The position numbers and the translations under genes are program-made. A DNA stretch of 64,000 nucleotides from Mustelus asterias (taxonomy: Eukaryota): the NCBI RefSeq assembly GCF_964213995.1, contig NW_027590163.1:124001-188000 (forward strand). Reading direction: 5' to 3'. The notes under the pieces were generated by a model that was not told the origin of the DNA, searched no databases, and saw nothing but the letters and a program-made list of their open reading frames with translations. Numbering within the stretch: the first letter of the stretch is position 1; every line of letters starts with the position of its first letter. Below, piece by piece: positions 869 through 61,029 of the stretch.

Positions 869-2592
869 AGGGTGGCACGGTAGCACAGTGGTTAGCACTG
901 CTGCTTCACAGCTCCTGCGACCTGGGTTCGATTCCCGGCTTGGGTCACTGTATCAAAGAACAATACAGCACAGAAATAGGCCCTCCAACCCCGCGCTGGT
1001 CCAAACTGGACCATTCTTTTGTATCCCTCCATTCCCACTCCGTTCATATGGCTGTCTGGATAAGTCTGAAACGTTCCCAGTGTGTCCGCCTCCACCACCT
1101 TGCCTGGCAGCGCATTCCAGGTCCCCACCACCCTCTGTGTAAAATATGTCCGTCTGATATCTGTGTTAAACCTTCCCCCCTTCACCTTGAACCTATGACC
1201 CCTCGTGAACGTCACCACCGACCTGGGGAAAAGCTTCCCACCGTTCACCCTATCTATGCCTTTCATAATTTTATACACCACTATTAAGTCTCCCCTTATC
1301 CTCCGTCTTTCCAGGGAGAACAACCCCAGTTTACCCAATCTCTCCTCATAACTAAGCCCCTCCATACCAGGTAACATCCTGGTAAACCTCCTCTGTACTC
1401 TCTCCAAAGCCTCCACGTCCTTCTGGTAGTGTGGTGACCAGAACTGGACGCAGTATTCCAGATGCGGCCGAACCAACGTTCTATACATCTGCAACATCAG
1501 ACCCCAACTTTTATACTCTATGCCCCGTCCTATAAAGGCAAGCATGCCATATGCCTTCTTCACCACCTTCTCCACCTGTGACGTCACTTTCAAGGATCTG
1601 TGGACTTGCACACCCAGGTCCCTCTGCGTATCTACACCCTTTATGGTTCTGCCATTTATCATATAGCTCCTCCCTACATTATTTATACCAAAATGCATCA
1701 CTTCGCATTCATCAGGATTGAACTCCATCTGCCGTTACTTTGCCCAAATTTCCAGCCTATCTATATCCTTCTGTAGCTTCTGACAATGCTCCTCACTATC
1801 TGCAAGTCCTGCCAATTTTGTGTCGTCCGCAAACTTACTGATCACCCCAGTTACACCTTCTTCCAGACCATTTATATAAATTACAAACAGCAGAGGTCCC
1901 AATACAGAGCCCTGCGGAACACCACTAGTCACAGGCCTCCAGCTGGAAAAAGACCCTTCCACTACCACCCTCTGTCTTCTGTGACCAAGCCAGTTCTCCA
2001 CCCATCTAGCCACCTCCCCCTTTATCCCATGAGATCCAACCTTTTTCACCAGCCTACCATGAGGGACTTTGTCAAACGCTTTACTAAAGTCCATATAGAC
2101 GACATCCACGGCCCTTCCCTCGTCAACCATTTTGGTCACTTCTTCAAAAAACTCCACCAGGTTAGTGAGGCATGACCTCCCTCTCACAAAACCATGCTGA
2201 CTATCGTTAATGAGTTTATTCCTTTCTAAATGCGCATACATCCTATCTCTAACAATCTTCTCCAACAACTTCCCCACCACGGACGTCAAGCTCACCGGCC
2301 TATAATTACCCGGGTTATCCTTCCTACCCTTCTTAAATAACGGGACCTGTGTGGAGTTTGCACATTCTCCTCGTGTTTGCGTGGGTTTCCTCCGGGTGCT
2401 CTGGTTTCCTCCCACAGTCCAAAGATGGGCGTGTTAGGTTGATTGGCCATGCTAAAAAGTGCCCTTAGTGTCCTGAGATGCGTAGGTTGGAGGGATTAGT
2501 GGGTGGATATGGGGGTAGGGCCTGGGTGGGATTGTTGTCGGTGCAGACTCGATGGGCCGAATGGCCTCTTTCTGTACTGTAGGGATTCTATG
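869..2592 (+). mobile_element. tRNA-derived SINE split by a LINE insertion (869-950 and 2347-2592)
   Basis: A/B-box head (gcacagtggttagc...gggttcgattccc) ends 'gggtcactgt' and resumes 'ctgtgtggagtttgcac' at 2347. Confidence 0.8.
951..2346 (-). mobile_element. 5'-truncated CR1-clade LINE, ORF2 reverse transcriptase with one premature stop
   Basis: ORFs 1735-2415 and 892-1728 share a frame; motifs [39 protein letters not shown]; same family as 45935-47070. Confidence 0.9.
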
Positions 2593-3097
2593 ATGCTCCA
2601 GAGAAAAAAGTCCAAGGCTATCCATCCTCTCCTTATAACTCAAAATATCAGTCCCGGCATCATCCGAGTAAATCTTTTCTGCATTCCTTCTCGTTTAATA
2701 ATATCCTTTCTATAATAGGGTGGCCAGAGCTGTACACAGTATTCCAAGTGTGGCCTTACCAATGTCTTGTACAACTTCAACAAGACGTCCCAACTGCTGT
2801 GTTCAATGTTCTGGCCAATGAAACCAAGCATGCTGAATGCCGTCTCTCCCATTCTTTCCACCTGTGACTAAACTTTGAAGGAGCGATGAACTGTACCCCG
2901 AGATATATTTTTTTCTAAAACTCTCACCAACGCCCGTCCATTAATTGAGCAAGTCCTGTCCTGGTTCGATCTACCAAAATGCATCACCTCGCATTCATCT
3001 AAAACAAACTCCATTTGCCATTCATCAGCCCACTAGCCCAGTTGATCAAGATCCCGCTGCAATCCTCGATAACCTTCTTCACTGTGCACAATGCCTC
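2593..3097 (-). mobile_element. CR1-clade LINE RT fragment (left part of the ERV target)
   Basis: YKTLVRPHLEYCVQLW and GIVHSEEGYRGLQRDLDQL; joins 12707 onward across the ERV. Confidence 0.8.
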
Positions 3098-3704
3098 TGT
3101 TAGCGCGAGTGAACAGATACCACACCACTCGCACCCAGAGCCAAGATCGATAGCAGCACAGTTTATTATAGTGTTTTACGTCGACGGAGGTACAATCAGG
3201 ACACAGACAAGACAGTCCCGTAAAGTACTCTGCTTGCCTGCCAAAACGGAGTACAGTTATAGTAACGATCTGTTTTGATATGTAAATGGTTTGTGAGTGG
3301 TTTCCTGATATAATCATCCTGTTTCAATAGGTTTGTGGGTGTGGAGTTTGATGTGTAAATGGTTTTCTTTTATAGTTATCCCGTTAATGGGTTTTCTGGT
3401 CTAGAGTTTTAATATGTAAAGTTTGGTTTAAGAGTGTGATAATTGCTTTATGTCTCTGAATTCCTTTGGACAATGGGTGTTTGATGGGATGTCAGGAAGT
3501 TTTCCAGGTCTCAAGATATTTTCTGAATAGCATATTGATGCGAGTTCCTGAGTCTTTGTCAACCTGGTTTCTGTGTTTAAAAGATGTCTGCTTGCCTTAC
3601 TCACACCTTTCTGGCTGAATGCTGTCCTGTTTTGCTTCATTTATCGAGTTATAGTTTAAAAAATATTCTAATCCTAATACCCACAAAATTTATGCCCGCC
3701 TACA
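3098..3704 (-). repeat. ERV 3' LTR
   Basis: Direct repeat of 12096-12702; TG..CA ends; minus-strand AATAAA at 3162-3167. Confidence 0.96.
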
Positions 3705-3714
3705 GTCCCCCCTG
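3705..3714 (-). other. Short polypurine tract
   Basis: Minus strand reads AGGGGGG-AC directly before the TG of the 3' LTR. Confidence 0.7.
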
Positions 3715-3853
3715 TCGGTCAAAAGTGAATTTTTGTTGTTTATTTCCTTTTCACTTTTCTAACCGATCTTTCTCCCCTTTATTATATTTTGTGTCCGGTG
3801 CTTCCTGCCTCCGTACGCTGCAGTCGTACAGTTTAGGGGAGTCCCGGAGTTTG

Positions 3854-6022
3854 TCAAATCATGTGTAGGCGGGAGTCATCATCCCGCTTGGCTACCTGCC
3901 CCATCATACCAATTGTTCTAACTAAGTTCTTATGTGCTTTCATTCTCTTCCGCTGGCGGTAGGTATAACATGTAGCCAATCCCCAGGAAAGGGCTAAGAT
4001 GAGTTGGATGACCACCAGTGTGTGCGATGTAATTCGGACCCAGGGGTGGATGTTTACATTTAGACCCCAGTCCCACACCTTCTGTACCCATGTTTGACTT
4101 CGTAACGCCGTCTCGGTATCTTGTTCCAAGGTTTTGATGTGTGACTGTAACTGGTGGTATAATCGGACGGAGTGTCCTACTTTAAGTCGGAGCTCCCTTA
4201 GGACTTCGGTCAGGTGTGGGATGGGGGCTTGCTCGGGTTCTTGGTAGTCTCTTAGGTTGTCTTTTAGGGGGTCTGTGGCATTAAAGGCTATGGTCTGCCT
4301 ATTTCGGATATTGGTGATGTGAGCTTGACCTATAGTGACTGGCTTGCGAGGGGTAAAACAGAAGTTAGGGTCGGGGATTGGGCATGTTAATCCGTTATAT
4401 GTGAATGATGTACGTGTGGTGGCTACACAGTATCTACCCCGCCCCCCGTATCCTGCCCGGGCGAAATGTGGGTCTACGGGTATAATCTCTAAGGTGCAGT
4501 CCTGTGTTCGGTTAAACCCACATTCTGCTGCCTCTCCTTGTCTCAGTGGGTGAGGACAGATGGTGACCTCTCCCCTCTGCTTGCACCCTGCGAGAGAAAC
4601 ACTGGACATTATGCCATGTTTGGAGATGGCCATGTTTTCGGTTATGTGGTAGCGGAGGGAAGCATTGCCCCTAACAACACCAATATTTTCAATTCGGAAG
4701 ATGGGGAATGGTCCAGCGTCCTGTGTGACCGTTGGAATTAGCAGAACCATTCCTATCCCGGTGCCCTCACTAACCTCGCAGTCGGGGATTACTGGATATA
4801 CTCGTGTCATCCCCTTCAGGGTCCGGTCATCCAGCACCCCCTTCTGATCTGCGAGTTGCGCTAGTTGGGCGCTGTCGATCCAATCGGGCACTTCCCCCCT
4901 GTGTACCTGGTCCAAATTGTGTCGTATTTGTGCCACCATCCACTGACCATATGCATGGCATAACTGTCCCTGTTGTACCCGGGCAGTGTCTTCCCTTTCC
5001 CTGTCTATGAGGCGATTGATAGTTCGGGCATGTGCTTCTAACACTGCAATCCCATCTAGTTGGATATGGGCGCCCGCTTCCCCTAAGAATGCTTGTTCCG
5101 CCTGCTGGTCTAATGACCGCTGTAATATGTTTTTCATTACCCCTTTCAGCTGTTCAATTTTACTGTTGAGGCCCTGGATGTCAATGGAGTTAATCATTGT
5201 GTCTCCTGTATTCAGCCCTGTGAGCATATCATTGATAATACCCCGTTTGCTTCGGTATGTGTTGGTGTTTATGTTTCCCCTGTAGTGTGTGGCCCCCATT
5301 GCGTCAATGGCCCGTTTTATGGTCTCTCTCTCTAACATCTGATACAAGTTCTGTACCTGTTCTGAGCAATGCCTGGGTACCTGGATTCCTGAAATGTCGA
5401 TCAGGACAGGTACCACCTCATGTTTTACGTTGTCGTACACAATTTCCCCCTCGTTCCACAACACCAGTCCTCCCTCCGGTCCCCTGCTTTGCAAGGGACA
5501 GGGTAAGATTTCGGGCCTTGTGGTCGTGGGGGCCCGCGCTGGAAGCGGTGCAAAACATACATACAATGAGACTGCGGGAGCCTCAACAAGTCCGTAATAG
5601 CCGCAAATGTCCATGTTTGAATTCAAAGTGTCCTGTGGTCGGGCCTCTTGTGGGTTGTCGGGGAGGGCGCAGAGAGTCCCAAAAACGCACTGGTCTCTGT
5701 TCTGGAGGTCCCGCTGTTGAATGCATGTTCGGAGTCCTTCTAAAGTGCAAGTGAAGCAGATCTCGTTGATACCCGGGTAAACTTGTAGCCATGCGTTAAG
5801 ATAAGTTCTACTGTTCATAGGGTCCGGTCCAGCTGGCACACATAGTGCCTCGGATGTGTTGAAGGCTACCCCGTGGAATCGCGGGTAGATGGGGTGTTCT
5901 TCGGGTGCCACACTCGTCAGGAAGGTCGCCGCGAGGATCATCCTCCAAGTGGTCCACATGGTTCTGGAGAGGGGTTGGGGGAGGATATATAAAACCTGGT
6001 GGCCGCCAGTCGTTAGGTTCAT
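3854..6022 (-). CDS. env: ERV envelope glycoprotein, F-type class I fusogen-like, 722 aa (start may be Met22 at 5959)
   Basis: Signal-like hydrophobic N-terminus, furin site RSKR (aa 257-260), following heptad region, Cys-rich block, C-terminal TM helix and basic tail; located between pol and the 3' LTR. Confidence 0.9.
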   Translation of the reverse strand: MNLTTGGHQVLYILPQPLSRTMWTTWRMILAATFLTSVAPEEHPIYPRFHGVAFNTSEALCVPAGPDPMNSRTYLNAWLQVYPGINEICFTCTLEGLRTCIQQRDLQNRDQCVFGTLCALPDNPQEARPQDTLNSNMDICGYYGLVEAPAVSLYVCFAPLPARAPTTTRPEILPCPLQSRGPEGGLVLWNEGEIVYDNVKHEVVPVLIDISGIQVPRHCSEQVQNLYQMLERETIKRAIDAMGATHYRGNINTNTYRSKRGIINDMLTGLNTGDTMINSIDIQGLNSKIEQLKGVMKNILQRSLDQQAEQAFLGEAGAHIQLDGIAVLEAHARTINRLIDREREDTARVQQGQLCHAYGQWMVAQIRHNLDQVHRGEVPDWIDSAQLAQLADQKGVLDDRTLKGMTRVYPVIPDCEVSEGTGIGMVLLIPTVTQDAGPFPIFRIENIGVVRGNASLRYHITENMAISKHGIMSSVSLAGCKQRGEVTICPHPLRQGEAAECGFNRTQDCTLEIIPVDPHFARAGYGGRGRYCVATTRTSFTYNGLTCPIPDPNFCFTPRKPVTIGQAHITNIRNRQTIAFNATDPLKDNLRDYQEPEQAPIPHLTEVLRELRLKVGHSVRLYHQLQSHIKTLEQDTETALRSQTWVQKVWDWGLNVNIHPWVRITSHTLVVIQLILALSWGLATCYTYRQRKRMKAHKNLVRTIGMMGQVAKRDDDSRLHMI

Positions 6023-6163
6023 ATTAGGTGATGAACTTGTCTTACTTATCTTATTCTTATTTCTATCTACATATATACATTCATGCCTCGGTTGGCATAT
6101 AGTTCCTTTAGTGTTGGAAAATAAAGGTTGTTATTTCGATTTCCGCTGTAAGGACAAAGATGG

Positions 6164-9100
6164 TTAAGGGCCAATACGTGGAGTGGACGGAGCATCCTCT
6201 GTCCTTTCAGTCAGTCTGCTCTGTCCTCTTTCCCCGTGGTGATAGGATTTTAATTGCGACCAATGTTTCCATCGGCCTTTTCCTTTCACATCGACACACG
6301 CACATGTATCGCTGGTAAGGATAACCTCGTGGGGTCCCATCCATTTCGGTGCAAACCCGGGTCGGTCTGGGGCAATCCGAATCAAAACCCTATCCCCTAC
6401 TCGAGGGAGGGTGGGGGTATGACTGACATTTTCCTTTTTAGCCTGGTCTCTAATGGCTTGCTGGTCCCTGGCTGTGTGGTGCAGGTCTCGGAGTTGTGAA
6501 TCTAAGTGTTGCACATATCGTTTGAGCTTGTCCCGGAGGGGTGTCATTTCTTCCCCTCCCACGGCGATGTTTTCGGGGAGTCGCATTGCTCTCCCGGTCA
6601 TTAGTTCGAACGGGGTGAGCCCTATGGTTCGACCTGGGGTGGCCCGTAGGCGCATCAGGATACAGGGAAGGACATCTACCCACCCCTGACCTGTTTCTGC
6701 GATAGTTTTTGCTATCGTGTTCTTGAGGGTGCGATTCATTCTCTCTACCATTCCAGCACTCTGGGGGTGGTATGGTATATGGAACCGCTGTCGGATCCCT
6801 AAGGTTTTACATGCGTGTTTCATTACCTTGCCTGTGAAGTGTGTCCCCTGGTCGGAGTCCAGTTGTAACGGGACTCCCCATCTGGGTATTATCTCATATG
6901 CTAAGATGTGGGCTACAGTGGTTGCCCCGCAATCCCGGGTTGGGAAGGCTTCTACCCATCGGGTGAACTGGTCAATGAGGACCAGGCAGTACTTCTTCCC
7001 ACGACTGGTGGGTAGAGGGCCGATGAAGTCAATTTGGAGGTTTTCCCAAGGTCCCTTTGGTCTGGGTTGGTTTGCTAGTTTAACCTTCAGGGGCCGGCCA
7101 GGGTTATGCTGTGCGCATATGATGCATCTTTGGCAGTGCTTAGCTACATCCCGCCCCATCCCTGGCCACCACCAATCTCCTGATAAACGAGCTAGGGTCC
7201 CATCCCGTCCGGAGTGGTTTGGTTCGTGGTGGAGTCGAAGTAGTTCCGCCTGTATGAATGAGGGGGCGACTACTTGATGTCCTTTCCTCCATATACCATC
7301 TTCGTCTAAGGACGCCCCGGTCTGTTTCCACCGCGCCACCTCGTCTGGGTCAGCGCTACCCTGTAGTTTATGAACATCCATCTCTTCCATGGGGGAAGAG
7401 ATGATGGCAGCTATCTGTGGGAGGGCTTCCCCTGCTGCAGCTTTAGCAGCGGCATCTGCTAGTTGGTTCCCCTTCTGCTCTACAGTCCTTGTCTTTTGAT
7501 GGGCTTTTATTTTAATTACGGCTGCTTCTGAGGGTAGTCTGGATGCTGTGGCCAGGTCTCGAATTATATTTTCATGTTTTATGTGTCCCCCCGCTGCGGT
7601 AATGAATCCGCGCCTATTCCATGCTATCATATAGTCGTGAACCACCCCGAACGCATATTGACTGTCCGTGTATATGTTTACCCTTTTGTCCCTTCCTGCG
7701 CTAAGGGCCTTTGTTAATGCTATAAGCTCGGCCACTTGAGCAGAGGTCTCCCCCCCCATGGTGCCCTTTGCTATTAGTGTTCCTTCCTGATCTACCACTG
7801 CCCATCCTGTGCGGTACTGTCCCTCCACCTGCCTTCGGGACCCGTCTACGTATAGTATTATATCGGGGTTCTCCAGTGGCTGATCACTAATCCCATCCTC
7901 TGTATCCATGTCTGGGTTAATCGGACAGTGATGTGGACTGCCGTCTGGAAGGAACCCCTCTGCTGGGTTTCTTCCGGTATCTCGTACGATTTTAATAGAT
8001 TGGTCCTGAGGAAGGAGCACTGCCTCCCAAGTTGCCCTTCGAGCATCTGAAACAGTTCGGAGTCGACCTGTGTTTAATAATTCTACTATTGTATGTTTTG
8101 TGTGCAGGATGATCTGTCCTAACATAGTAATGGGTTCGCACACCCTGACTGCCCATGCGGCACAGTCCAGGGCTGCCACACATTTGTGTAGTCCTTTGGC
8201 TATCGGGGACTGCCGCACCGAATAATATGCTACAGGTCTCATGGTGCCCCCACTTTCTTGAGTCACAACGGAGCTATAGAATCCGTCCTCCGCATTATAA
8301 AAAAGATGGAACGGTTTCGCTATGTTGGGCAGGCATAAGGCTGGGGCCGCTAATAATTCTGATTTCAGGTGGGAGTATGCTGTTTCTTGTTCGGGTCCCC
8401 ATTCAATGATTTCTGCCCCCGGCCTCCCCCCTTTTACCAATCGCTGGATAGGTTCTGCTATGGATGCAAACTGATCGATGAAATTCCGACAGTAATTAAA
8501 GAGTCCCATTACCCTACGCACCCCCCTAACTGTGTTCGGACGGGTCATGTTGGCAATTGCTGTTTTTCGGTCCGTGGGAAGGGTTTTCTTTCCCTGACTT
8601 ATGTAATGCCCCAGATATCGGACCTCTGGTTTTGCGAGTTGTGCTTTGGTTGGGTTAACCTTAAATCCTGCTGTTTGTAAGCCCCGCAGGATTACTGACA
8701 GGGCTCCCAAATGCCCCGTCGGGTTAGTGGAGGCGATCAAGATGTCATCCACATATTGGAGAAAAGCGCTCTCATAGGGGGATAAGTTACAATTTTCGAG
8801 GGCTTTGCTCATAACCCGGTGGAATATGTTGGGGCTATTGTGGAATCCCTGGGGGAGACGGGTCCAGGTGTACTGTCTACCTCCACAGGTGAAGGCAAAC
8901 TTCTCCTGGGAGTCTGGGTGGAGTGGAATTGACCAGAATCCGTTTGCTATGTCTAGCACGGAGAAGATACAATATTCAGGTCGCAGTCCGTTAAATATAG
9001 TGGCCGGGCTCGCAACGATAGGGTGTTCCTTTGGGGTGACCTTATTCAGGGCGGTATAGTCGATGGTTAGTCGGTAGTTCCCGTCTGGCTTACGGACGGG

Positions 9101-9778
9101 CCACATCGGGGAATTTGTGTGGGACACGGTGGGTCTCAGGATGCCCCGTTTAACCAAAGCCTGGACGATTGTTTCGGTTGCCTGTAACGCCTCGGGTTTT
9201 ATGGGATATTGTTTATGAGGGGCATGGGCTGGTCCTTGTATTTGTAAAGGAAGGATTGTGACGAGACCGCAGTCTTGCTTGCCTGTAGCCCAGACCCGGG
9301 GTAGTGCTTGACATAAGAGTCCCACTAGTCCCTCCTTCTTCCAGTCTCGGGCCGTCGGAGCCGGAGCCCCCATGCCTATGGCTGCTACGTTCTTATTAGG
9401 GACCCAGTATCCTTGGATCCCGCTATTGTGTTCTTTCCTTGCCGTCCACAGCAGGCGCTTATTGAAAGCGTCCACCACTGCTCCTAACTCTCCCAGGAGG
9501 TCTATTCCCAAAATTGTCCCTTCTTCATTTGGGCCCACCCAGAAGTGTACGGGGAGTATGATCCCCTCTACCTCAAGTAACACTGCTTCGCTCTGATATG
9601 CTATAGTCCTATCCCCCCCTATTCCTACTACTACTATGGAACGGTGGGTGGTGGGTAGTGCCATGTTGGTGAGGGATATCGAAGCCCCCGTATCTATTAA
9701 TATTTTGCATCGCCGGCCCCCTAACGATGCATTCACCCAGATACGGGGGTCCGTTCCCGGGGCGGGGGCCGATGCCAC
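6164..9778 (-). CDS. pol: ERV Pro-Pol (protease, RT, tether, RNase H, integrase), 1204 aa, probably expressed by readthrough of the gag stop
   Basis: ILIDTGAS; LPQGFHNSP and YVDD; RNase H YVDGS..SAQVAEL..YTDSQY; HHCC; DDE (IDF, SDQG, VERMN); GPH variant of the GPY/F motif. Confidence 0.97.
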   Translation of the reverse strand: MASAPAPGTDPRIWVNASLGGRRCKILIDTGASISLTNMALPTTHRSIVVVGIGGDRTIAYQSEAVLLEVEGIILPVHFWVGPNEEGTILGIDLLGELGAVVDAFNKRLLWTARKEHNSGIQGYWVPNKNVAAIGMGAPAPTARDWKKEGLVGLLCQALPRVWATGKQDCGLVTILPLQIQGPAHAPHKQYPIKPEALQATETIVQALVKRGILRPTVSHTNSPMWPVRKPDGNYRLTIDYTALNKVTPKEHPIVASPATIFNGLRPEYCIFSVLDIANGFWSIPLHPDSQEKFAFTCGGRQYTWTRLPQGFHNSPNIFHRVMSKALENCNLSPYESAFLQYVDDILIASTNPTGHLGALSVILRGLQTAGFKVNPTKAQLAKPEVRYLGHYISQGKKTLPTDRKTAIANMTRPNTVRGVRRVMGLFNYCRNFIDQFASIAEPIQRLVKGGRPGAEIIEWGPEQETAYSHLKSELLAAPALCLPNIAKPFHLFYNAEDGFYSSVVTQESGGTMRPVAYYSVRQSPIAKGLHKCVAALDCAAWAVRVCEPITMLGQIILHTKHTIVELLNTGRLRTVSDARRATWEAVLLPQDQSIKIVRDTGRNPAEGFLPDGSPHHCPINPDMDTEDGISDQPLENPDIILYVDGSRRQVEGQYRTGWAVVDQEGTLIAKGTMGGETSAQVAELIALTKALSAGRDKRVNIYTDSQYAFGVVHDYMIAWNRRGFITAAGGHIKHENIIRDLATASRLPSEAAVIKIKAHQKTRTVEQKGNQLADAAAKAAAGEALPQIAAIISSPMEEMDVHKLQGSADPDEVARWKQTGASLDEDGIWRKGHQVVAPSFIQAELLRLHHEPNHSGRDGTLARLSGDWWWPGMGRDVAKHCQRCIICAQHNPGRPLKVKLANQPRPKGPWENLQIDFIGPLPTSRGKKYCLVLIDQFTRWVEAFPTRDCGATTVAHILAYEIIPRWGVPLQLDSDQGTHFTGKVMKHACKTLGIRQRFHIPYHPQSAGMVERMNRTLKNTIAKTIAETGQGWVDVLPCILMRLRATPGRTIGLTPFELMTGRAMRLPENIAVGGEEMTPLRDKLKRYVQHLDSQLRDLHHTARDQQAIRDQAKKENVSHTPTLPRVGDRVLIRIAPDRPGFAPKWMGPHEVILTSDTCACVDVKGKGRWKHWSQLKSYHHGERGQSRLTERTEDAPSTPRIGP

Positions 9779-11188
9779 TCATGCAGATTTTTGTGCCGCC
9801 AAGGTTTGTATAATGTCCAGCAGCTGCTGGTGGCTGAGGTGCACTGGGTCCGAAACCACCTCGTTCTCCCTTATATCTGGGGCGCTTGCCGGGGTTTTCT
9901 CCAGTCTCTTCGGGGGCGCTCCCTTTCTCCTTGGGATCCTTCTGTCTTTGCAGGTAGATTCGGTGTGTCCGATTCTGCCGCACTTATTACATGTATTAGG
10001 AGGGTGCGGGATTATAGCTCGGCATTCCCTTTTGAAATGGCCTAATTCCCCGCACCTGTAGCAATGTCCTCCTTCAGTTCCTACCGCTGATATCCCTGCT
10101 CTGGCGCCCTGTGTTTTCCTTTGCTGGTTGTCTACAGTGACAGCCCAGTTTTCTAATTCATCGAAGGTGTTAAAGTTTACCAATCCTGTCTTTAGGATAG
10201 CTTGGTGTGCTGGGCTCAGCCCATCCCTATATAACTGGAGGAATGCCGGGTTCTGTCTATCTGCATCTGGCATTCCTCCGTGGGCTACAAAGGCATCGAA
10301 TTTTCGTCGCCCGTATTCCTGAGCCCCTTCCTCCTTTTTCTGCGTTACTCCTACTATTACACTCCAACTCACGGGGACCTCCCCCATGGTCAGGATAATA
10401 TCGTTTTTAAAGCCTGTCAGAGCCTGTTCCTGCTCCCGGCGGCTCCCGTCTAGGTCTGCACACCAAGTCCCATTCTGGTGTTCTGCCCGGAGCCGAGCCC
10501 AGTGATTCTCGGGCATCTTGGCTCTTACTAACCCTGCTATATCTCGGTTGTGTAAGTTGTGGCACATCTCTTTCATCTTTTGCCAAAAAATTGCGTTACT
10601 GTGCCTGGGCTGCAGGGTTGGGAGCTTTTCTAGTAATTTCATAGTGTCCCCTGGCGAGAGTGACACATAAGTCATTTTAATTTGGGCCTGCCTTCCTCGC
10701 CCGTCTCTCCCTTGTCCCCCTGGGATACATTCGATCTTAAGAGGTGCTGCTTTGGCGTTTGGGGGATCGGTGGTTACCGGGGGACTCCCCCCTGTTGGGC
10801 ACCGAGGACTTGTCTCGTCTATTAAGCACTCCCAATCGGGACATTCCTCGTATGGGGCTTCACGGGAGAAGTCGGTCAGTGCCGGCAACACGGGGTTAAT
10901 AGCCATCACAGCAGCATGCTTTTTCTGTTCAGCCTTTTCTTGTTTATCCTGAACGTATTTATGGACTCGCCCTGCTAGGGTGAGGTGTGCCTTTAGTATG
11001 AGGATCCAAGCCTTATCATCCTTGTTCCTCTTTTCCGTTGCCCACCATTCCCGTTGGCTCTCAAGGGGGTCTTGGGGTTTCCACCCTGTTTTAATCATGC
11101 TTTTAATTAGGTTCTTGTTTTTATCTGCTAGATAGCGGGTGAGGGACCCTTCCGGCCCCCATTCAAAAATGGTCTCAATGCTATCCAT
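9779..11188 (-). CDS. gag: ERV Gag, 469 aa, with two CCHC zinc knuckles
   Basis: MHR-like QKKEEGAQEYGRR; CYRCGELGHFKREC and CNKCGRIGHTESTC; TGA stop in frame with pol. Confidence 0.94.
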   Translation of the reverse strand: MDSIETIFEWGPEGSLTRYLADKNKNLIKSMIKTGWKPQDPLESQREWWATEKRNKDDKAWILILKAHLTLAGRVHKYVQDKQEKAEQKKHAAVMAINPVLPALTDFSREAPYEECPDWECLIDETSPRCPTGGSPPVTTDPPNAKAAPLKIECIPGGQGRDGRGRQAQIKMTYVSLSPGDTMKLLEKLPTLQPRHSNAIFWQKMKEMCHNLHNRDIAGLVRAKMPENHWARLRAEHQNGTWCADLDGSRREQEQALTGFKNDIILTMGEVPVSWSVIVGVTQKKEEGAQEYGRRKFDAFVAHGGMPDADRQNPAFLQLYRDGLSPAHQAILKTGLVNFNTFDELENWAVTVDNQQRKTQGARAGISAVGTEGGHCYRCGELGHFKRECRAIIPHPPNTCNKCGRIGHTESTCKDRRIPRRKGAPPKRLEKTPASAPDIRENEVVSDPVHLSHQQLLDIIQTLAAQKSA

Positions 11189-12032
11189 GTCGAATCTCTT
11201 AGCTAAGATCAGTGGTGTACTAATCCTGGTTTGGTGCTTCCCACAGATACTTGTGGAGGTATCCCTGGGGTTCCTGGTTTGGTGTTTCCACTGTCAGTAC
11301 CTTTAAACCTTCAGCAGTAACACGCAGAGCCCGTCCTGCATGTAACGGGGAGATCACCGCTCACAGAAACAGGGGGGGGGGGGGGGGCTCTGACCACGAC
11401 TACAGGGGCCGGGGGCCACTCTTTCCTGACCAAATCATACCGCTAAATCAATCCACAGAGGCTCGCCGTTTCCCTATCTCCCCGGGAATCACCCTGACCT
11501 GGGTGCGGACAAGCGTGGGATTGACCGCAGGTAGGAGTTCCCCCGGCGTGTAGCCGTTCTTTCGCGCTACCAGAGGTCTCCTGCTTGTAGTGCCCGAAGC
11601 ACTCACAGAGGCTCCAGACTTAGTAGCGCCCGGACATGTAGCAGACTCCTCGCGGATCTGTTTCCAGTGGCCCAGACTTTCGCGCCTGCAGAGGTCCTAC
11701 CCGACTTGCAGCGCCCGGACTTAAACCGAACTTCGTGAGTCCGCGTTCATTGGCCCTAACCCTGGACGTCCTCCCGGCCTCCCGGCCACTTAACCCTTGT
11801 CTTCCTTAGGTACCTTTTGGGTCAGCTAATGTCTGGTCGGGTCCGCTGTCAGGGATACACGGAATGCAACAGTACACAATCAATTACAATTCGCGACCCC
11901 GCTCACCCGCCCAAAGAAGAACCTACCCCGCTGTGCAGCTCTCGATCGGGCTCTGTTCACAAGTTCAGATCGCGGCAGCCGTGGAACACCGCTGGCACTG
12001 GGAATTCCCGCGGACTTTAAATGAGTAAAGAT

Positions 12033-12041
12033 ACTCACCCA
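12033..12041 (-). promoter_or_regulatory. Candidate major splice donor (TGG|GTGAGT)
   Basis: Consensus donor about 37 nt downstream of the PBS; candidate acceptor CTTAAC..TCTTTGTCCTTACAG| at 6146. Confidence 0.6.
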
Positions 12042-12075
12042 GTGTTTGAGAGGCGATGTTCCAGCGGCGGTCACG

Positions 12076-12093
12076 ATCCCGGACGAGCCCCCA
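12076..12093 (-). other. Primer binding site, tRNA-Pro
   Basis: TGGGGGCTCGTCCGGGAT, 18/18 complementary to the tRNA-Pro 3' end plus CCA, 2 nt after the 5' LTR. Confidence 0.97.
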
Positions 12094-12095
12094 AT

Positions 12096-12702
12096 TGTTA
12101 GCGCGAGTGAACAGATACCACACCACTAGCACCCAGAGCCAAGATCGATAGCAGCACAGTTTATTATAGTGTTTTACGTCGACGGAGGTACAATCAGGAC
12201 ACAGACAAGACAGTCCCGTAAAGTACTCTGCTTGCCTGCCAAAACGGAGTACAGTTATAGTAACGATCTGTTTTGATATGTAAATGGTTTGTGAGTGGTT
12301 TCCTGATATAATCATCCTGTTTCAATAGGTTTGTGGGTGTGGAGTTTGATGTGTAAATGGTTTTCTTTTATAGTTATCCCGTTAATGGGTTTTCTGGTCT
12401 AGAGTTTTAATATGTAAAGTTTGGTTTAAGAGTGTGATAATTGCTTTATGTCTCTGAATTCCTTTGGACAATGGGTGTTTGATGGGATGTCAGGAAGTTT
12501 TCCAGGTCTCAAGATATTTTCTGAATAGCATATTGATGCGAGTTCCTGAGTCTTTGTGAACCTGGTTTCTGTGTTTAAAAGATGTCTGCTTGCCTTACTC
12601 ACACCTTTCTGGCTGAATGCTGTCCTGTTTTGCTTCATTTATCGAGTTATAGTTTAAAAAATATTCTAATCCTAATACCCACAAAATTTATGCCCGCCGA
12701 CA
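12096..12702 (-). repeat. ERV 5' LTR
   Basis: Direct repeat of 3098-3704 with 3 substitutions seen by eye. Confidence 0.96.
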
Positions 12703-12706
12703 CCTC

Positions 12707-13340
12707 CAATCTTGGTGTCATCTGCAAACTTACTAACCATGCCTGCTAAATGCTCATCAAAACCATTAAAATAAATGACAAATAACAGTGGAACCAGAAC
12801 CGACCCTGAGGCGCACCGCTGGTGACAGGCCTCCAATTTGAAAGCAACTCTCTACAACCAGCCTCTGTCTTCTGTCATCAAGCCAATTTTACATCAATTT
12901 GGCTACCTCACGCGGAATACCGTAAGATTTAACCTGATGCAACAACCTGCCATGCGGTATCTTGTCAAATGCCTACTAAAGTCCATGTAGACAACATCAA
13001 TTACACTGCCCTCATCGACCTTCTTGGTTACCCTTTCAAAAAACTCAATAAAAATTCGTGAGACATGATTTTCCACTCACAGAGCCATTCTGATCAGTCC
13101 TTGCCTCTCTAAATGCCTCGGGATCCTGTTTCTCAGACTGCCTTCGAACAACTTACCCACTACAGATGTGAGGCTCAGCGGCCTGTAGCTCCCACGCTTC
13201 TCCCTGCAACCCTTTTTAAACAGAAGCACGACATTTCCCACCCTCCAGTATTCAAGCAGATCACCTGGGCTTTCGATGATTCAGATATCTCTGCAAGGGG
13301 TCCTGCTATTTCCCCCGAGTCTCCCATAACGTGGGAGGTC
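12707..13340 (-). mobile_element. CR1-clade LINE RT fragment (right part of the ERV target)
   Basis: 'caatcttggtgtcatctgcaaactt' encodes KFADDTKI on the minus strand; degenerate RT continues. Confidence 0.8.
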
Positions 13341-13545
13341 GTCTGAAGGAATGAGGTCCTCTCAATTCGTGTCTGCCAGCAGAGTCAACCATTGAAAATG
13401 TTTCGATTTACTTGTGAGCCTGCTATGGTGTTAGATTGTGCTCAGGTTCTCAACCCAAAGCCCATGTGAAGCAATCCCGCCGTGTGCAAGGAAAATAAAT
13501 TTACAGAACCAGTACCTTGTCCAATATGCAACAGCAGCAAAATGT

Positions 13546-13635
13546 GGGCTCGTCCGGGATTTGAACCCGGGACCTCTCGCAAGCTTGCGAATTTCAACAC
13601 CCAAAGCGAGAATCATACCCCTAGACCAACGAGCC
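13546..13635 (-). tRNA. tRNA-Pro(TGG) with an 18-nt intron (13582-13599)
   Basis: Exons match the canonical vertebrate tRNA-Pro(TGG) as I recall it; insertion at position 37/38; TTTT terminator 3 nt downstream. Confidence 0.9.
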
Positions 13636-14079
13636 TTCGTTGCAGAGATCTGCCAAATAATTATATTTTCATTGTCATCCAAAATAGATCATACATCTGC
13701 ATTGAAAGTTGAAAATGCTGGAATAGCTCAGAAAGTCAGAGAGCGTGTGTGCACAGAGAAACAAAGCTTTTCTTTCATCTCTCTACCCTTTCACTGAAAC
13801 TGGGGATGTTTAAAAATGTAGAACGTTTTGCGCAAATGAGATGCAGGAGGGAGGAAACATAACATCCTGTTGGGTGGAAGTCAGGAGAGGTGAGATGACG
13901 GAAACAGAGAATCACAAAGCGATTAACCACATAATGAGGCCGTTCCGAAGTTCTTTCCAGGACACACATGTGCTGTGGATAAAGGGGAACCGGTGGATGT
14001 AATGTACATAGATTACACTGGAGCCACATTGATGAGGTTGGTGGGTCTTGAGTTTTGAAAGTTCCACTCAGTAATATAG

Positions 14080-52809: not shown

Positions 52810-55800
52810 AAGGGAGGAGTGGAGTATGAGCACGAGAGAGGGGGGAGTGTGGGTGCGAGGGACGGGGCAGTGTGGGTGCGAAGGGGGGAGTGTGGGTGCG
52901 AGGAGAGAGTGGGTGCAGGGGGGGTGTGGGTACGAGGGGGGAGTGTGGGTGTGAGTGGTGGGAGTGTGGGTGCGAGGTGGCAGTGTGGGTGCGAGGGGGA
53001 AGTTTGGGTGCGAGGGGGGAGTTTGGGAGCGAGGGGGCGAGGGTAGGTGCGGCGGGGGGGGGAGTCTGGGTGCGGGGGGAGTGTGGGTGCGAGAGCGGGG
53101 AGTGTGGGTGCGAGAGGGGGGAGTGTGGGTGCGGGAGGGGAGTGTTGGTGCGAAGCGGGGGGAGGGTGGGTGCGAGAGGGGGGAGTTTGGATGCGAGAGT
53201 GGGGGGAGAGTGGGTGAGAGAGTGGTGAGTGTGGACGCGAGGCGGGGGAGTGTGGGTGCGAGAGGGGGGGAGTGTGGGTGCGAGAGGGGGGAGTATAGGT
53301 GCGAGACGGTGGGAGTGTGTGTGCGATACGGGGGGGAGTGTGGGAGGGTCGAAGTGCAGGTTTGGGAGGGGGAAGTGCGGGGGCGAGAGGAGGGAGTGCA
53401 GGTGCGAGAGGGGGAGTGCAGGTGCGAGAAGGGGGGAGTGTGGGTACGAGAGGTGGGAGTGTGGGTGCAAGAGGGGGGTGTGCAGGTCCAAGAGGGGGGT
53501 GTGCAGGTCCGAGAGGGGGGATCGTGGGTGCGAGAAGAGGGAGTGCGGGTGCGAGAGGGGGGAGAGTGTGGGTGCGAGAAGGAGGGGGAGTGTGAGTGCG
53601 GGGGGGCGAGTGTGGGTGCGGGAGGGGCGGGAGTGCGGGTGCGAGAGGGAGGTGAAAGAGAAAGATTGTTGGGGTGAGAGTGGGAGTGTTGAGTTCCCTA
53701 AGGACTGGGAGGCTTGTTGATACAACAGAAAGTCTATTGAGATGAGAGGGGATTGCTGAGATGAGTTGGCAGTGTATTGTGATGAGCGATAATGTTCTGT
53801 CCTAAGAGGGGGCGTGCCGACGGCAGGGAGAGGGAGCCTGCCGACGGGTGGGATGGGGGGCGTGCCGAGGGGAGGGAGAGGGGACGTGCCGACAGGAGGG
53901 AGAGGGGGCGCGCCGACCGGAGGGAGTGGGTGCCTGCCGACGGAAGGGAGAGGGGGCGGGCCGCCGGGGGGGGGAGAGGGGGTGGGCCAACGGGGGGGAG
54001 AGGGGGCGTGCCGACAGGAGGGAGAGGGTGCGGGCGACGGAAGGGAGAGGGGGCATGCCGACGGGAGGGAGCGGGGGCGTGCCGACTGGAGGGAGAGGGG
54101 ACTGCTGAGGGTCCTGGTCTCAATTTAGCGGTGTGTGTGTTGAGATGAGTGTGGGAGTGTTGTGGTGACAGTGGGAGAGTTTAGAGTGGGACTGTTGAGG
54201 TGAGGGGAGTGCTGATTTGAGGGCACTGTTTAGGTGGGAGGGGAAGCTTCGACATTGCATTGAGCCAGTGCAGGTGAGAGTGGGTGAGTTTTGCGGTGAG
54301 AGGGGTTCTTGTTGAGAACAGAGTGGGTGAGTGTTGAGGTGATATGTGCTGAGTGTTCATGTGAGGGTAAACGGAGTTGATTAAGATGAGGGGGGAAGTG
54401 TTTAGAGCGGATGGGGTGTATTGTGGTGAGGGGCAGAGCGTTGAGGAGAAAGGGGCGGGCGGATATGAGACATAGTGTTTTAAGGTGAGTGGGGGAGGGC
54501 TTTGTTGAGATTGTTAATGTTGAGATGATAGGGGGAACTTTGAGTTAAGCGGGATTGTTGAGGTGACGGTCAGAGAATGTTGATGTGAGACTGGGTGTGT
54601 GGACGTGGGATAGGGAGCGGGTTGAGGTGGGAGGGGGAGCGCGTTGAGGCGGGAGGGGGAGCGCGTTGAGGTCGGAGGTGGAGCACGTTGAGGTCGAAGG
54701 GGAAGAACGTTGAGCAGAAAGTGGGAGTGCCAACTTGAGTGTCGATTTTTGAGATGAGATGGGGAAAGTGCAGTTTGGAGCGATCGTGCTGGAACGGGTG
54801 TGTTGAGGCCAGGGAATGTTGTGAAGTTGGAGGGGGAATTTTAATACGAGGAGTTGTATATCTTGAGTGGAGTGGGAATGATGGGGTGAGGGTTGAAAAT
54901 GTTGAGAAGTAGGTCAATGTTGAGTTGTGACGAGACAGTTAGAAGCGAGATTGTTGAGGTGCGAAGGAGGAGAGTGGATCAGAGACAGACAGTGTTGAGG
55001 TGATTATGGGAGTGTTGAGGCGAGACGGAGATTATTGAGCTTCGAGGGGGAGTGTGGATTTGAGAGCGATACCGCTGCCCAGACGGGGGAACGTTAAGAT
55101 TAGAGGAAGTTGTTAATGTGAGAGAGAAAGATTGTTGAGGTGAGAGGGAGAGTGATGACATGAGAGGGGGTGTATTGAGATGAGTGGGATTTCTTGAGGT
55201 GAGAGGGGGAAAGTTAAAATGAGATGGCGGGCGCTGAGGGGAGGCAGAGTGCTGAGATGAGAAGAGAGAGCTGACGTGAGAGGGGGAGAATGTTGTGGTG
55301 AGACGGAGGGTGGGATTTGGCCCCCAAAATCGGATAAGACCACCAGAGGTTATCGGACCTTTACATGGTCTGTGGCCGCCCGCTCCGATTCCCATGCGGT
55401 GTGGGACAGGAAATTTATCTCTTGGGGATTGTGAGGCGAGAGTGTGAAGCTGGGTGGGGAATACAGAGATGAGATGGTTCGTGTTGTGGTGGTTGGGGTA
55501 ATGTAGAGGTGAGCAGGGACGATTATTATGAGGGGGGAATATGTTAAGGTGGGAGGAGGAGAGTTGTGTTGAGTGGGGGAGTGTTGAGTTGAGAGGTGGT
55601 GTTCTGGTGAGAGGGCTGATGTTGTCAGTGGGAGAATATAGACGGGAGAAGTTGAGTGTTGAGGTGAGAGTTGGTCTGTTGCGATGAGAGGGGATGTGCT
55701 GAGGTGCGGGGATGTGTGTTGAGGATTGCGGAAGAGTGTTGAGGTGGTGGAGAGTGCAGAGTTGAGGGGAAGTGTTTTTGAGGGGTGAGAGTGTTGAGCT

Positions 55801-56240
55801 GAGAAGGGGAGTTTTGACATGAGAGGGACATTGTTCCATTGAGGCAGAGCAGTGTTAAGATAAGGGGGCATGTCGAGCTGAGAGGAGGAGTATTCATGTG
55901 AGAGGGCTGTGTTGATGTGTAAGGGGGAGTATTAAGGAGAGTTTGGAGTGTTCAGACAGGAGTGGTCGCTGAGATCACAAGGGGTGGGTTTTGAGATAAG
56001 GGCGGTGTGGATCGCAGGTGGTGAATTCGGATGTGAGGGGGAGAATTTAGCTGCGAGACGGATAGTGTTGAGGTGAGACAGTGTTGAGGAGAAAGGGTGT
56101 CATGTCTGTCTGATCGAGGTTGTGAGAGAGGAGAAGGTGAGTATTGAGGTGAGCTGGAGTGTGTTGAGATGAGGGTGTGTGTTGAAGTGACAGGATAGTG
56201 TTGATGTGAGAGGGAGTGTTTTGCAGTAACGGGGAGTGCT
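52810..56240 (+). repeat. G-rich minisatellite complex: ~21-bp GAGTGTGGGTGCGAGAGGGGG, ~24-bp GCGTGCCGACGG.AGGGAGAGGGG, and degenerate GTGTTGAGGTGAGAGGG
   Basis: Seen directly; blocks at 52810-53660, 53805-54100 and 54130-56240. Confidence 0.9.
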
Positions 56241-60055: not shown

Positions 60056-60325
60056 GGGGAATAAGGGATACAGGCGGACGGAAGGAGCATTTGGAATATG
60101 TTCAGTGCAGGGATTTGGGGGTGGTGTTTTGAGATTTTTGTGACAGGTTTGGGTGGTGAGGAATGGGGGTTAGGCAGTTTGTGGGAGGGAGGGAGCATTG
60201 ATCTCCCCGGTTTCAAATCCTCCCCGGGTTTCCACTACACCTGTCTTCAAACTACCATCAGGTACGCCGCCTCATCGTGTTCATATCCACACCAACGTCG
60301 CTCAATCAAAATGTCCAACCAATCA

Positions 60326-60571
60326 ACAGGTTCAGACCCACACCAGGTTCAAACTCACACCAGGTTCAGACACACACCAGGTTCCGGCCCGCACCAGGTT
60401 CAAACTCACACCAGGTTCAGACTCACACCAGGTTCAAACTCACACCAGGTTCAGACTCGCACCAGGTTCAGGCACGCGCCAGGTTCAGGCCCGCGCCAGG
60501 TTCAGGTCCACGCCAGGTTCAGGTCCACGCCAGGTTCAGGCCAGCGCCAGGTTCAGGCACGCACCAGGTTC
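60326..60571 (+). repeat. 17-bp minisatellite (CAGGTTCAGACTCACAC), about 14 units
   Basis: Seen directly. Confidence 0.92.
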
Positions 60572-61029
60572 CATTCCAAATGTTAGAGAGTCTCTCCGGG
60601 TTGTTCCACTCTATCCTGGGATATAGTTACCCTCTTTAACTCTGGAAATCCATTGAATCCATTCAGGTCCTATAATTGTGGCTCCAATTTCAGATTTACA
60701 CTGCAATTGATTCAAAAACCTGGGCATCAGCAATTGAATCTATCTCCTCCAGCTCCTTGTTTCCCAGCAGCCCAGATGAGATGTCCGGAACCGGGGCACC
60801 GGTCAGGCAACACAGCCTTCGAGACTCTCAATCCTGGCCACAGCGAAAGGTGTCTATTTCCCTGACGAACTATCTCCATTTACAACTACATTTACTTTTT
60901 CTCCTCCCTCTTGAATGGCTCCCTGAACCCCCGTGCTGTGGTTAGGTTGTTCATCCTCCTTGCAGCCCCCACCCACATCCTCACAGGGAGCAAGTGTCAC
61001 AAACCTGTTTGTTTAATCATTCGAAGGAC

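Follow-up and report, generated by a model that had tools for sequence, protein, structure and literature searches.

A stretch of 64,000 nucleotides from the shark Mustelus asterias (contig NW_027590163.1, positions 124,001 to 188,000 of the forward strand; called the window below) contains a whole endogenous retrovirus (ERV) on its minus strand, at 3098-12702, whose gag, pro-pol and env frames are open. Its gag and pol genes are joined in one frame across a UGA stop codon. We propose, with a probability of roughly 0.55, that readthrough of this UGA is helped by a predicted pseudoknot, in which a short helix (S1) would connect a C-rich strand shortly past the stop with the loop of a long hairpin further downstream. 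The proposal draws on the conservation of the stop, on the pairing of S1 in seven related families and on RNA folding models.

The stop codon between gag and pol

The first-pass annotation of this DNA had described gag and pol as joined by an in-frame UGA, and this holds: gag ends GCA-TGA and pol continues in the same frame as GTG GCA TCG.

9779..9781, minus strand: gag stop codon UGA (TGA at 9781-9779), in frame with pol, with A at -1 and GUG after it

Conservation of the UGA in other copies had been suggested as a check, and TGA is found in 57 of 59 distinct contexts (from 127 rows) of the family to which the window element belongs (family 1), the other two having TAA and TGG. The related families 2, 3 and 5 likewise have it, in 56 of 59, 12 of 14 and 5 of 5 of their distinct contexts. 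These searches of the shark's own genome scored the best 40 or 150 of 214-2226 candidates, and the tallies are those of the best-matching copies. The family 1 tally rules out that the UGA is damage to one copy, and the stop is kept in frame between two constrained coding regions. Between two contigs that cover 9450-10050 there are 11 differences, none of them within 9680-9781, which is too few changes for significance.

The first Met of the pro-pol frame is residue 39, downstream of the catalytic DTG (residue 29). Since no Met lies ahead of the DTG, Pol with its protease must come through the stop or from a splice into the gag frame; no gag-to-pol splice joint was seen in assembled sequencing-run contigs, which cannot exclude one. 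Judged from these frames, readthrough appears by far the likeliest route to Pol. That Pol would come instead from a spliced or separately started RNA, from re-initiation at an overlapping AUG, or from selenocysteine insertion or adenosine-to-inosine (A-to-I) editing at the stop seems very improbable. An AUGA overlap is present at the stop, and foamy viruses use a separate start for Pol (as mentioned in the text of PMC8278194), but the AUG of this overlap lies in a frame other than that of pol, families 2, L209 and L211 do not have it, and the first in-frame Met follows the catalytic Asp. Furthermore, selenocysteine does not explain the UAG that some relatives carry at the same site, the stop codon lies outside any predicted helix, and Rfam detected no selenocysteine insertion sequence (SECIS) in 3000-13800, a search by which viral variants could be missed.

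The UGA had also been taken to set the shark element apart from the retroviruses of fish, which is not the case. Section 4.1.2 of a 2026 review (PMC13517186) names UGA at the gag-pol junction of the swim bladder sarcoma virus of salmon (SSSV), of zebrafish endogenous retrovirus (ZFERV) and of a toad ERV, and XtERV-S carries TGA at this junction according to the text of PMC8278194; these examples rule out the UGA as a first for retroviruses. The published passage of an elephant-shark ERV shows, by eye, an in-frame TGA 38 codons ahead of the DTG (PMC4422223), and the elephant-shark ERV resembling snakehead retrovirus (SnRV) in the supplement of that paper has a decayed junction and, also by eye, another primer site and env type. 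An opal stop is ordinary for aquatic retroviruses.

Helix S1 in the related families

Divergent-protease searches of the shark's own genome, together with a metagenome scan, recovered six more stop-bearing families, with reverse transcriptase (RT) identities to the window element of 47-65% where measured. Their junctions read as follows.

Family 2: UGA-CGG
Family 3: UGA-CGA
Family 5: UGA-GCA
Family 6: UGA-CAA-UUA, one copy
L209/L210: UAG-CGC; same RT as P0008, the cluster of which includes herring proteins
L211/L212: UAG-CAA-UUA

Five of the seven stop-bearing families have UGA and two have UAG. Textbook leaky contexts are found in four of the six relatives (families 2, 3 and 6, and L211), and as far as sequence can tell they lend independent support to readthrough in this lineage; the UGA-GUG of the window element is not the classic leaky context with C at +4. 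The tobamovirus-type (type I) motif UAG-CAA-UUA stands at the gag-pol junction of a metagenome contig (L211:2915-2923, plus strand) and UGA-CAA-UUA in a shark copy (L314:1615-1623, minus strand); the type I motif is said in section 2.1 of PMC13517186 to be absent from animal viruses. A scan of IMG/VR found no relative. Additional UGA gag-pol junctions without S1-type pairing were seen beyond the clade (L238, L239, L259, L275 and L286, with UGA-CGG, UGA-AGA, UGA-CUA and UGA-GGA), and UGA at gag-pol arises at several points of the tree.

In all seven families a strand that begins at +9 or +10 and ends at +15 (+1 being the first nucleotide after the stop) can pair with the Gly-Gly codons of the protease to form S1. 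The corresponding features of the window element are these.

9771..9778, minus strand: spacer of 8 nucleotides (+1..+8) with the first GCAUC at +4..+8, which would form the 5' arm of the lower stem discussed below; varies between subfamilies
9764..9770, minus strand: 5' arm of helix S1, GGCCCCC (+9..+15)
9715..9721, minus strand: 3' arm of helix S1, GGGGGCC (+58..+64), the protease Gly-Gly codons, within the apex loop of the hairpin

When RNAalifold was applied to 12 junctions from the seven families, S1 was the sole consensus helix. Of its 84 cells 94% are paired, against 35-71% for slid partners, controls over which a helix drawn from the sequences tested has an advantage; the shuffle counts that go with such helix comparisons are not to be read as probabilities. 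Codon 5, which lies beneath the 5' arm, encodes Pro, Leu or Ser and is all-pyrimidine throughout, and where it is Ser the partner carries GGA, a compensatory change from C-G to U-A. The chance of finding all six S1 pairs, given the amino acids, is 0.011-0.062 in each of the six families computed. In the window family the best duplex of +9..+16 with +30..+110 reaches -18.9 kcal/mol. At 450 overlapping codon positions further downstream in this element, no duplex is as strong; the +9..+16 duplex window had been picked after seeing the sequence. Over the seven families the S1 duplex is matched at 0, 0, 1, 0, 16, 0 and 9 of about 450 downstream positions. Outside the clade, five UGA junctions rank 233 of 242 and 279-386 of 450, and two of seven UAG junctions also reach high ranks (1 and 0 of 450), their partners lying elsewhere. 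Within families 1, 2 and 3 all six core pairs are intact in 33 of 43, 48 of 59 and 9 of 14 copies, respectively.

From the stop to the 5' arm of S1 the distance is constant, while that between the two arms varies by 6 nucleotides, and the 5' arm is absent where the stop is absent. Family 4, a relative of family 2, has no in-frame stop near the protease in 24 of 25 loci scored, and there the hairpin is retained and the 5' arm is missing (duplex -2.0). This family (L315-L339) consists of at least 25 near-identical defective copies (from 1100 candidates) with common breaks, apparently amplified after decay. The stem had been thought to go with UGA in particular, a link that is contradicted by the two related fish families in which the same S1 helix follows UAG. 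We regard S1 as quite probably functional. The window family combines a non-leaky context with the strongest S1 and the strongest hairpin of the set, as would fit a heavier reliance on structure.

The long hairpin and the predicted pseudoknot

The first-pass annotation had drawn a stem of 12 base pairs (bp) with a bulge of 3 nucleotides between GCAUCGGCCCCC at +4..+15 and GGGGGCC(GGC)GAUGC at +58..+72, with 42 nucleotides between them, and had taken it as the readthrough signal. The stem can indeed be drawn, and folding of 9700-9781 gives it as the structure of lowest energy (-35.6 kcal/mol). Taken as one fold, it does not exceed chance (z -1.4; 19 of 200 shuffles are equally good), and when 20 further bases are included (+1..+100) its pair probabilities are 0.00 versus 0.99 for a long hairpin, with energies of -35.6 and -45.9 kcal/mol, respectively. 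This hairpin, at +30..+94, had been missed; no other local fold is as strong (z -2.4 for 9680-9781), and with it a pseudoknot becomes possible. Its two helices are composed as follows.

9739..9749, minus strand: 5' arm of helix S2 (+30..+40), the hairpin base in this family; predicted, pair probability 0.73-1.00; kept in subfamilies A-C
9725..9731, minus strand: 5' arm of helix S3 (+48..+54), predicted; holds the second GCAUC (+49..+53)
9706..9712, minus strand: 3' arm of helix S3 (+67..+73), which would also serve the lower stem as its 3' arm; one use excludes the other
9685..9695, minus strand: 3' arm of helix S2 (+84..+94), overlapping the protease DTG codons

S2 has 11 bp, S3 joins +48..+54 with +67..+73, and the apex loop measures 12 nucleotides. 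As GCAUC occurs twice, at +4..+8 and +49..+53, with the same partner, S3 and the lower stem (the 5 bp of the drawn stem that precede S1) are mutually exclusive. S1, on the other hand, is compatible with the long hairpin: its 3' arm lies inside the apex loop, and S1 and S3 together make a pseudoknot. The folds were computed with ViennaRNA, a knot-free model in which pseudoknots are beyond reach.

In the aligned junctions S3 is paired in 74% of cells, with double changes at 4 of its 7 pairs, and slid controls give 15-46%. When the families are folded without the 5' arm of S1, the Gly-Gly bases are unpaired inside a hairpin in 5 of 7 of them, against 6-16 of about 113 background windows. For the 12-bp stem, covariation had been named as a further check, and the two parts of the stem differ in this respect: the upper 7 bp are the 94% paired S1, with its one compensatory change, while the lower 5 bp are paired in 58% of cells over the 12 aligned junctions, with slid controls reaching 52%. 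A signal made of all 12 bp from +4 is thus not borne out, since the lower part is weakly kept and competes with the second GCAUC; by the rule of an 8-nucleotide spacer, the lower stem would also fall within the stretch covered by the terminating ribosome. The earlier idea of opal readthrough with a stimulator other than that of murine leukaemia virus (MLV) survives in part, readthrough being the likeliest route and the candidate signal not being the MLV pseudoknot as such, without the 12-bp stem as its agent.

Synonymous sites point in a similar direction in some comparisons. Between subfamilies A and B only 1 of 22 four-fold sites changed in codons +1..+33, against 130 of 390 elsewhere (p 0.002), and in family 2 the synonymous diversity past the stop is 0.114 versus 0.205 (p 0.002).

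According to the mechanism that we propose, a minority of ribosomes would likely read through the UGA and produce Gag-Pro-Pol, the likely stimulator being the predicted pseudoknot that starts 8 nucleotides past the stop. The long hairpin (S2 and S3, +30..+94) is predicted to present the Gly-Gly bases in its apex loop. With the stop codon in the A site, the ribosome would cover about 8 nucleotides and S1 would lie at the mRNA entrance; the apex loop would dock on the C-rich strand, and the knot would resist unwinding and slow termination. Near-cognate tRNAs for UGA are those for Trp, Cys or Arg, and one of these could sometimes beat the release factor and decode the stop. The step of which we are least sure is that the twofold GCAUC might let the RNA switch between the knot and the 12-bp stem, which can be likened to the spacer pairing thought to tune the MLV signal.

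Several observations weigh against this pseudoknot. Its energy is neutral and speaks neither for nor against it: the open hairpin (-33.9) together with S1 (-15.8) is more stable than the best nested fold (-42.6) by only about 7 kcal/mol, a margin from which any knot penalty is still to be subtracted. S1 contains one independent compensatory change, the others being C-to-U wobbles or invariant; L209/L210 and L211 are sisters, so that the Ser/GGA change counts as one event. The one-per-family MAFFT alignment (A4) gapped the 5' end and was not counted, its 5' register being lost, so that the 5' arm is placed in register by how far it lies from the stop. S2 is paired in 67% of cells and its register is not kept between families, and the stopless family 4 is one defective lineage. 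As for synonymous conservation, it is borderline between subfamilies A and C (p 0.05) and was not seen in pooled family 1 (p 0.15) or in family 3 (p 0.80), and other windows of pol are equally low in synonymous change (codons 100-124 and 250-324).

The remaining points of this kind bear on a simpler structure, a plain extended stem-loop in the alphavirus style, in which a 42-nucleotide loop containing a small hairpin is closed by S1, to which the lower 5 bp may or may not be added, and in which the long hairpin would be an off-pathway or unrelated fold. No helix but S1 is kept in all seven families; it makes up the fold of lowest energy for +1..+80, with a probability of 0.99, and would be the first to form as the RNA is made. 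The apex hairpin is absent in families 5 and 6, and the lower stem too has 4 pairs with double changes. Spacers of 8-9 nucleotides and long loops are typical of this class in the descriptions of PMC3159437, and Table 5 of PMC3542737 lists epsilonretroviruses with an extended stem-loop, from unpublished data. We nevertheless hold this structure to be rather unlikely. In folds of +1..+100 or more, S1 alone has a probability of 0.00 against 0.9-1.0 for S2 and S3 (in the knot-free model) and is about 8-10 kcal/mol worse; 6-7 bp over a loop of 42-48 nucleotides is short beside the stems of 10-14 bp described in PMC3159437; the pairing of the lower stem is close to that of its slid controls; and S3 covaries.

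It is also conceivable, at a clearly lower probability, that readthrough is basal, at a level set by the stop context, or gets help from the long hairpin alone, and that the conserved pairing has a role in packaging, dimerisation or the control of splicing or is a by-product of protein constraint. The hairpin, as the strongest local fold, survives in the stopless family 4, the leaky contexts of four relatives may need no structure, and the Gly-Gly and DTG codons are under protein constraint. A pseudoknot predicted after the UGA of Candida Tca2 failed to direct readthrough in a yeast reporter (as reported in PMC2194720). Against this, the hairpin starts at +26 to +30, beyond the reach of known stimulators, the 5' arm of S1 keeps its distance from the stop and is lost with it, and the UGA-G context of the window family is non-leaky. 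The pseudoknot of S1 with the hairpin loop is the reading that we favor over both.

Known readthrough signals and the surrounding provirus

The candidate signal shares several features with the MLV pseudoknot (Rfam GP_knot1, RF01073, and GP_knot2, RF01092). In both, the stop lies about 27-31 codons ahead of the protease Asp, as compared in the MLV-type locus L214. The first MLV helix starts at G9 after an 8-nucleotide spacer (section 4.1 of PMC13517186), and here the 5' arm of S1 starts at +9 or +10 in all seven families; in both, a C-rich strand pairs with the G-run of the Gly-Gly codons, and a possible pairing of the spacer lengthens the first helix (described for MLV in the same review). 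The differences lie in the stop context (UGA-GUG in the shark, type III UAG-GGR in MLV), in the length (about 95 versus 50-60 nucleotides) and in the topology. The MLV knot begins with a local hairpin that carries the C-run in its loop, whereas in the shark the C-run itself would serve as first arm and the G-run would lie in the loop of the later, long hairpin; no conserved local hairpin is found at +9 in the shark clade. Neither GP_knot model matched any of the 7 clade loci at the gathering score, at which only 2 of 4 gamma-type controls matched, and none was found in the window at E values up to 5.

The type II signal of alphaviruses, as described in the text of PMC3159437, likewise has UGA, a 5' arm 8-9 nucleotides past the stop with a distant partner, and reduced synonymous change. 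Its contexts are UGA-CGG/CUA in place of the UGA-GUG of the shark, and only family 2 shares the context (UGA-CGG). Its stems have 10-14 bp and its loops about 100-150 nucleotides, compared with a conserved helix of 6-7 bp and loops of 42-48 nucleotides here, and the shark 3' arm is predicted to lie inside a hairpin loop. The shark spacer fits the 8-12 nucleotides of the extended-stem criterion; 6-7 bp are conserved, and the 12-bp version from +4 includes the lower part that is 58% paired.

The retroviruses of fish and amphibians (walleye dermal sarcoma virus (WDSV) and SnRV with UAG; SSSV, ZFERV, RMERV and XtERV-S with UGA) have the same gene layout and a presumed suppression of the stop. Their cis-element is called unclear in the pertinent part of PMC13517186, and the comparison with them is one of descriptions only. 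A scan of WDSV and SnRV gave no pseudoknot according to the main text of PMC3835772. No published account of the S1 structure or of the shark family was found, and subscription papers, supplements (including those of PMC3159437 and PMC3835772) and Repbase/Dfam may hold one. The conserved helix and the probable knot are likely new relative to described signals; the opal stop itself was already known. We further consider, at somewhat less than even odds, that they represent a second type of retroviral readthrough pseudoknot in a shark-and-teleost lineage beside the gamma- and epsilonretroviruses, which would use the Gly-Gly codons and the 8-nucleotide spacer of MLV with the knot reversed, would follow UGA or UAG in type I, type II or non-leaky contexts, would be strongest where the context is weakest, and would have a two-state switch in the window family.

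The readthrough signal of gammaretroviruses is the only retroviral one elucidated so far; for the epsilon-type and fish retroviruses the cis-elements are described as unclear and unverified in the sections of the 2026 review that cover them (PMC13517186). The present lineage supplies seven natural versions of one signal, with UGA or UAG and with leaky or non-leaky contexts, by which stop, context and structure could be told apart, and it offers a concrete, testable model for a readthrough signal of the fish type. If the knot is true, one G-run at the start of the protease has been wired into two topologies, which bears on the action and evolution of stimulators; if only the short stem is true, the result is a modest extension of the extended stem-loop class.

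The provirus has the following layout.

12096..12702, minus strand: 5' long terminal repeat (LTR), 607 bp, 3 mismatches to the 3' LTR
12076..12093, minus strand: primer-binding site, complementary to the 3' end of tRNA-Pro
9779..11293, minus strand: gag frame with two zinc knuckles; it has 504 codons from one stop to the next, and its first ATG is at 11188
6164..9778, minus strand: pro-pol frame, 1204 amino acids, with protease, RT (YVDD), tether, RNase H and integrase
3854..6130, minus strand: env frame, first ATG at 6022, RSKR site
3098..3704, minus strand: 3' LTR, 607 bp

It is flanked on both sides by a 4-bp target-site duplication. When the junction was used as a DNA query, 214 candidates resulted, of which the best 40 were scored and are 99-100% identical, and the window Env is 99% identical to NCBI proteins of Mustelus asterias; on sequence grounds, the provirus is a member of a young, amplified family. 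Older subfamilies have about 87% and 80% identity.

The closest solved structure to Pol is the MLV RT (E 2e-113, against 2e-56 for the next retroviral group). In a quick tree of RT and RNase H, Pol joins the gamma/epsilon-type rows and stands apart from the beta-like and gypsy ones, with a Shimodaira-Hasegawa-like approximate likelihood ratio test (SH-aLRT) of 100, and in quick trees the sampled families form one clade, an early side lineage beside gamma/epsilon-type sequences (SH-aLRT 84-88). Both trees are quick searches made without authenticated Loki, foamy, SnRV or WDSV rows; family 6 (with no RT in its locus) and L294 (a short match) were excluded, and families 3 and 5 are missing from the second tree. 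The predicted fold of Env, modeled for the 99% identical P0101 with a mean predicted local distance difference test (pLDDT) score of 62, resembles the F protein of paramyxoviruses and pneumoviruses, the top Foldseek match being F of human parainfluenza virus 3 (hPIV3; E 1e-10, template modeling (TM) score 0.30 by query); sequence searches of Pfam and PDB with Env gave no match. We leave the element as a putative early-branching, class-I-related ERV with an F-type env, in trees from which reference Loki and epsilon rows are absent. In the shark, an F-type env is joined to a class-I-related Pol, and relatives occur in bamboo shark, with more distant ones elsewhere.

An Env with an RXKR site and a likeness to the F proteins of Mononegavirales is described for the lokiretroviruses in the text of PMC7947760, and such an F-like Env and a dual RNase H are shared with the shark element. 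The shark Pol differs in grouping with gamma/epsilon-type sequences and not outside all retroviruses, in trees that hold no reference Loki row, and cartilaginous fish are not among the hosts listed in that text. In run X15, which we guess to be RNA, contigs over 3700-5950 of the window (env) have a depth of about 2000-7000, compared with about 87 over gag-pol, and at 5998 there is a loose end. Such a pattern could come from splicing of an env RNA or from an env-only gene that stands by itself in the organism sequenced, and contig depth cannot rank expression.

Elsewhere in the window, a tRNA-Pro(UGG) gene with an apparent 18-nucleotide intron lies at 13546-13635 on the minus strand, about 850 bp from the 5' LTR; ARAGORN miscalls it as Gln, and its 3' end matches the primer site of the provirus. 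Four further tRNA-like genes are present. G-rich tandem arrays of 21-24-nucleotide units with strong GC skew occupy 52859-56000, and a 17-nucleotide tandem array lies at 60273-60578.

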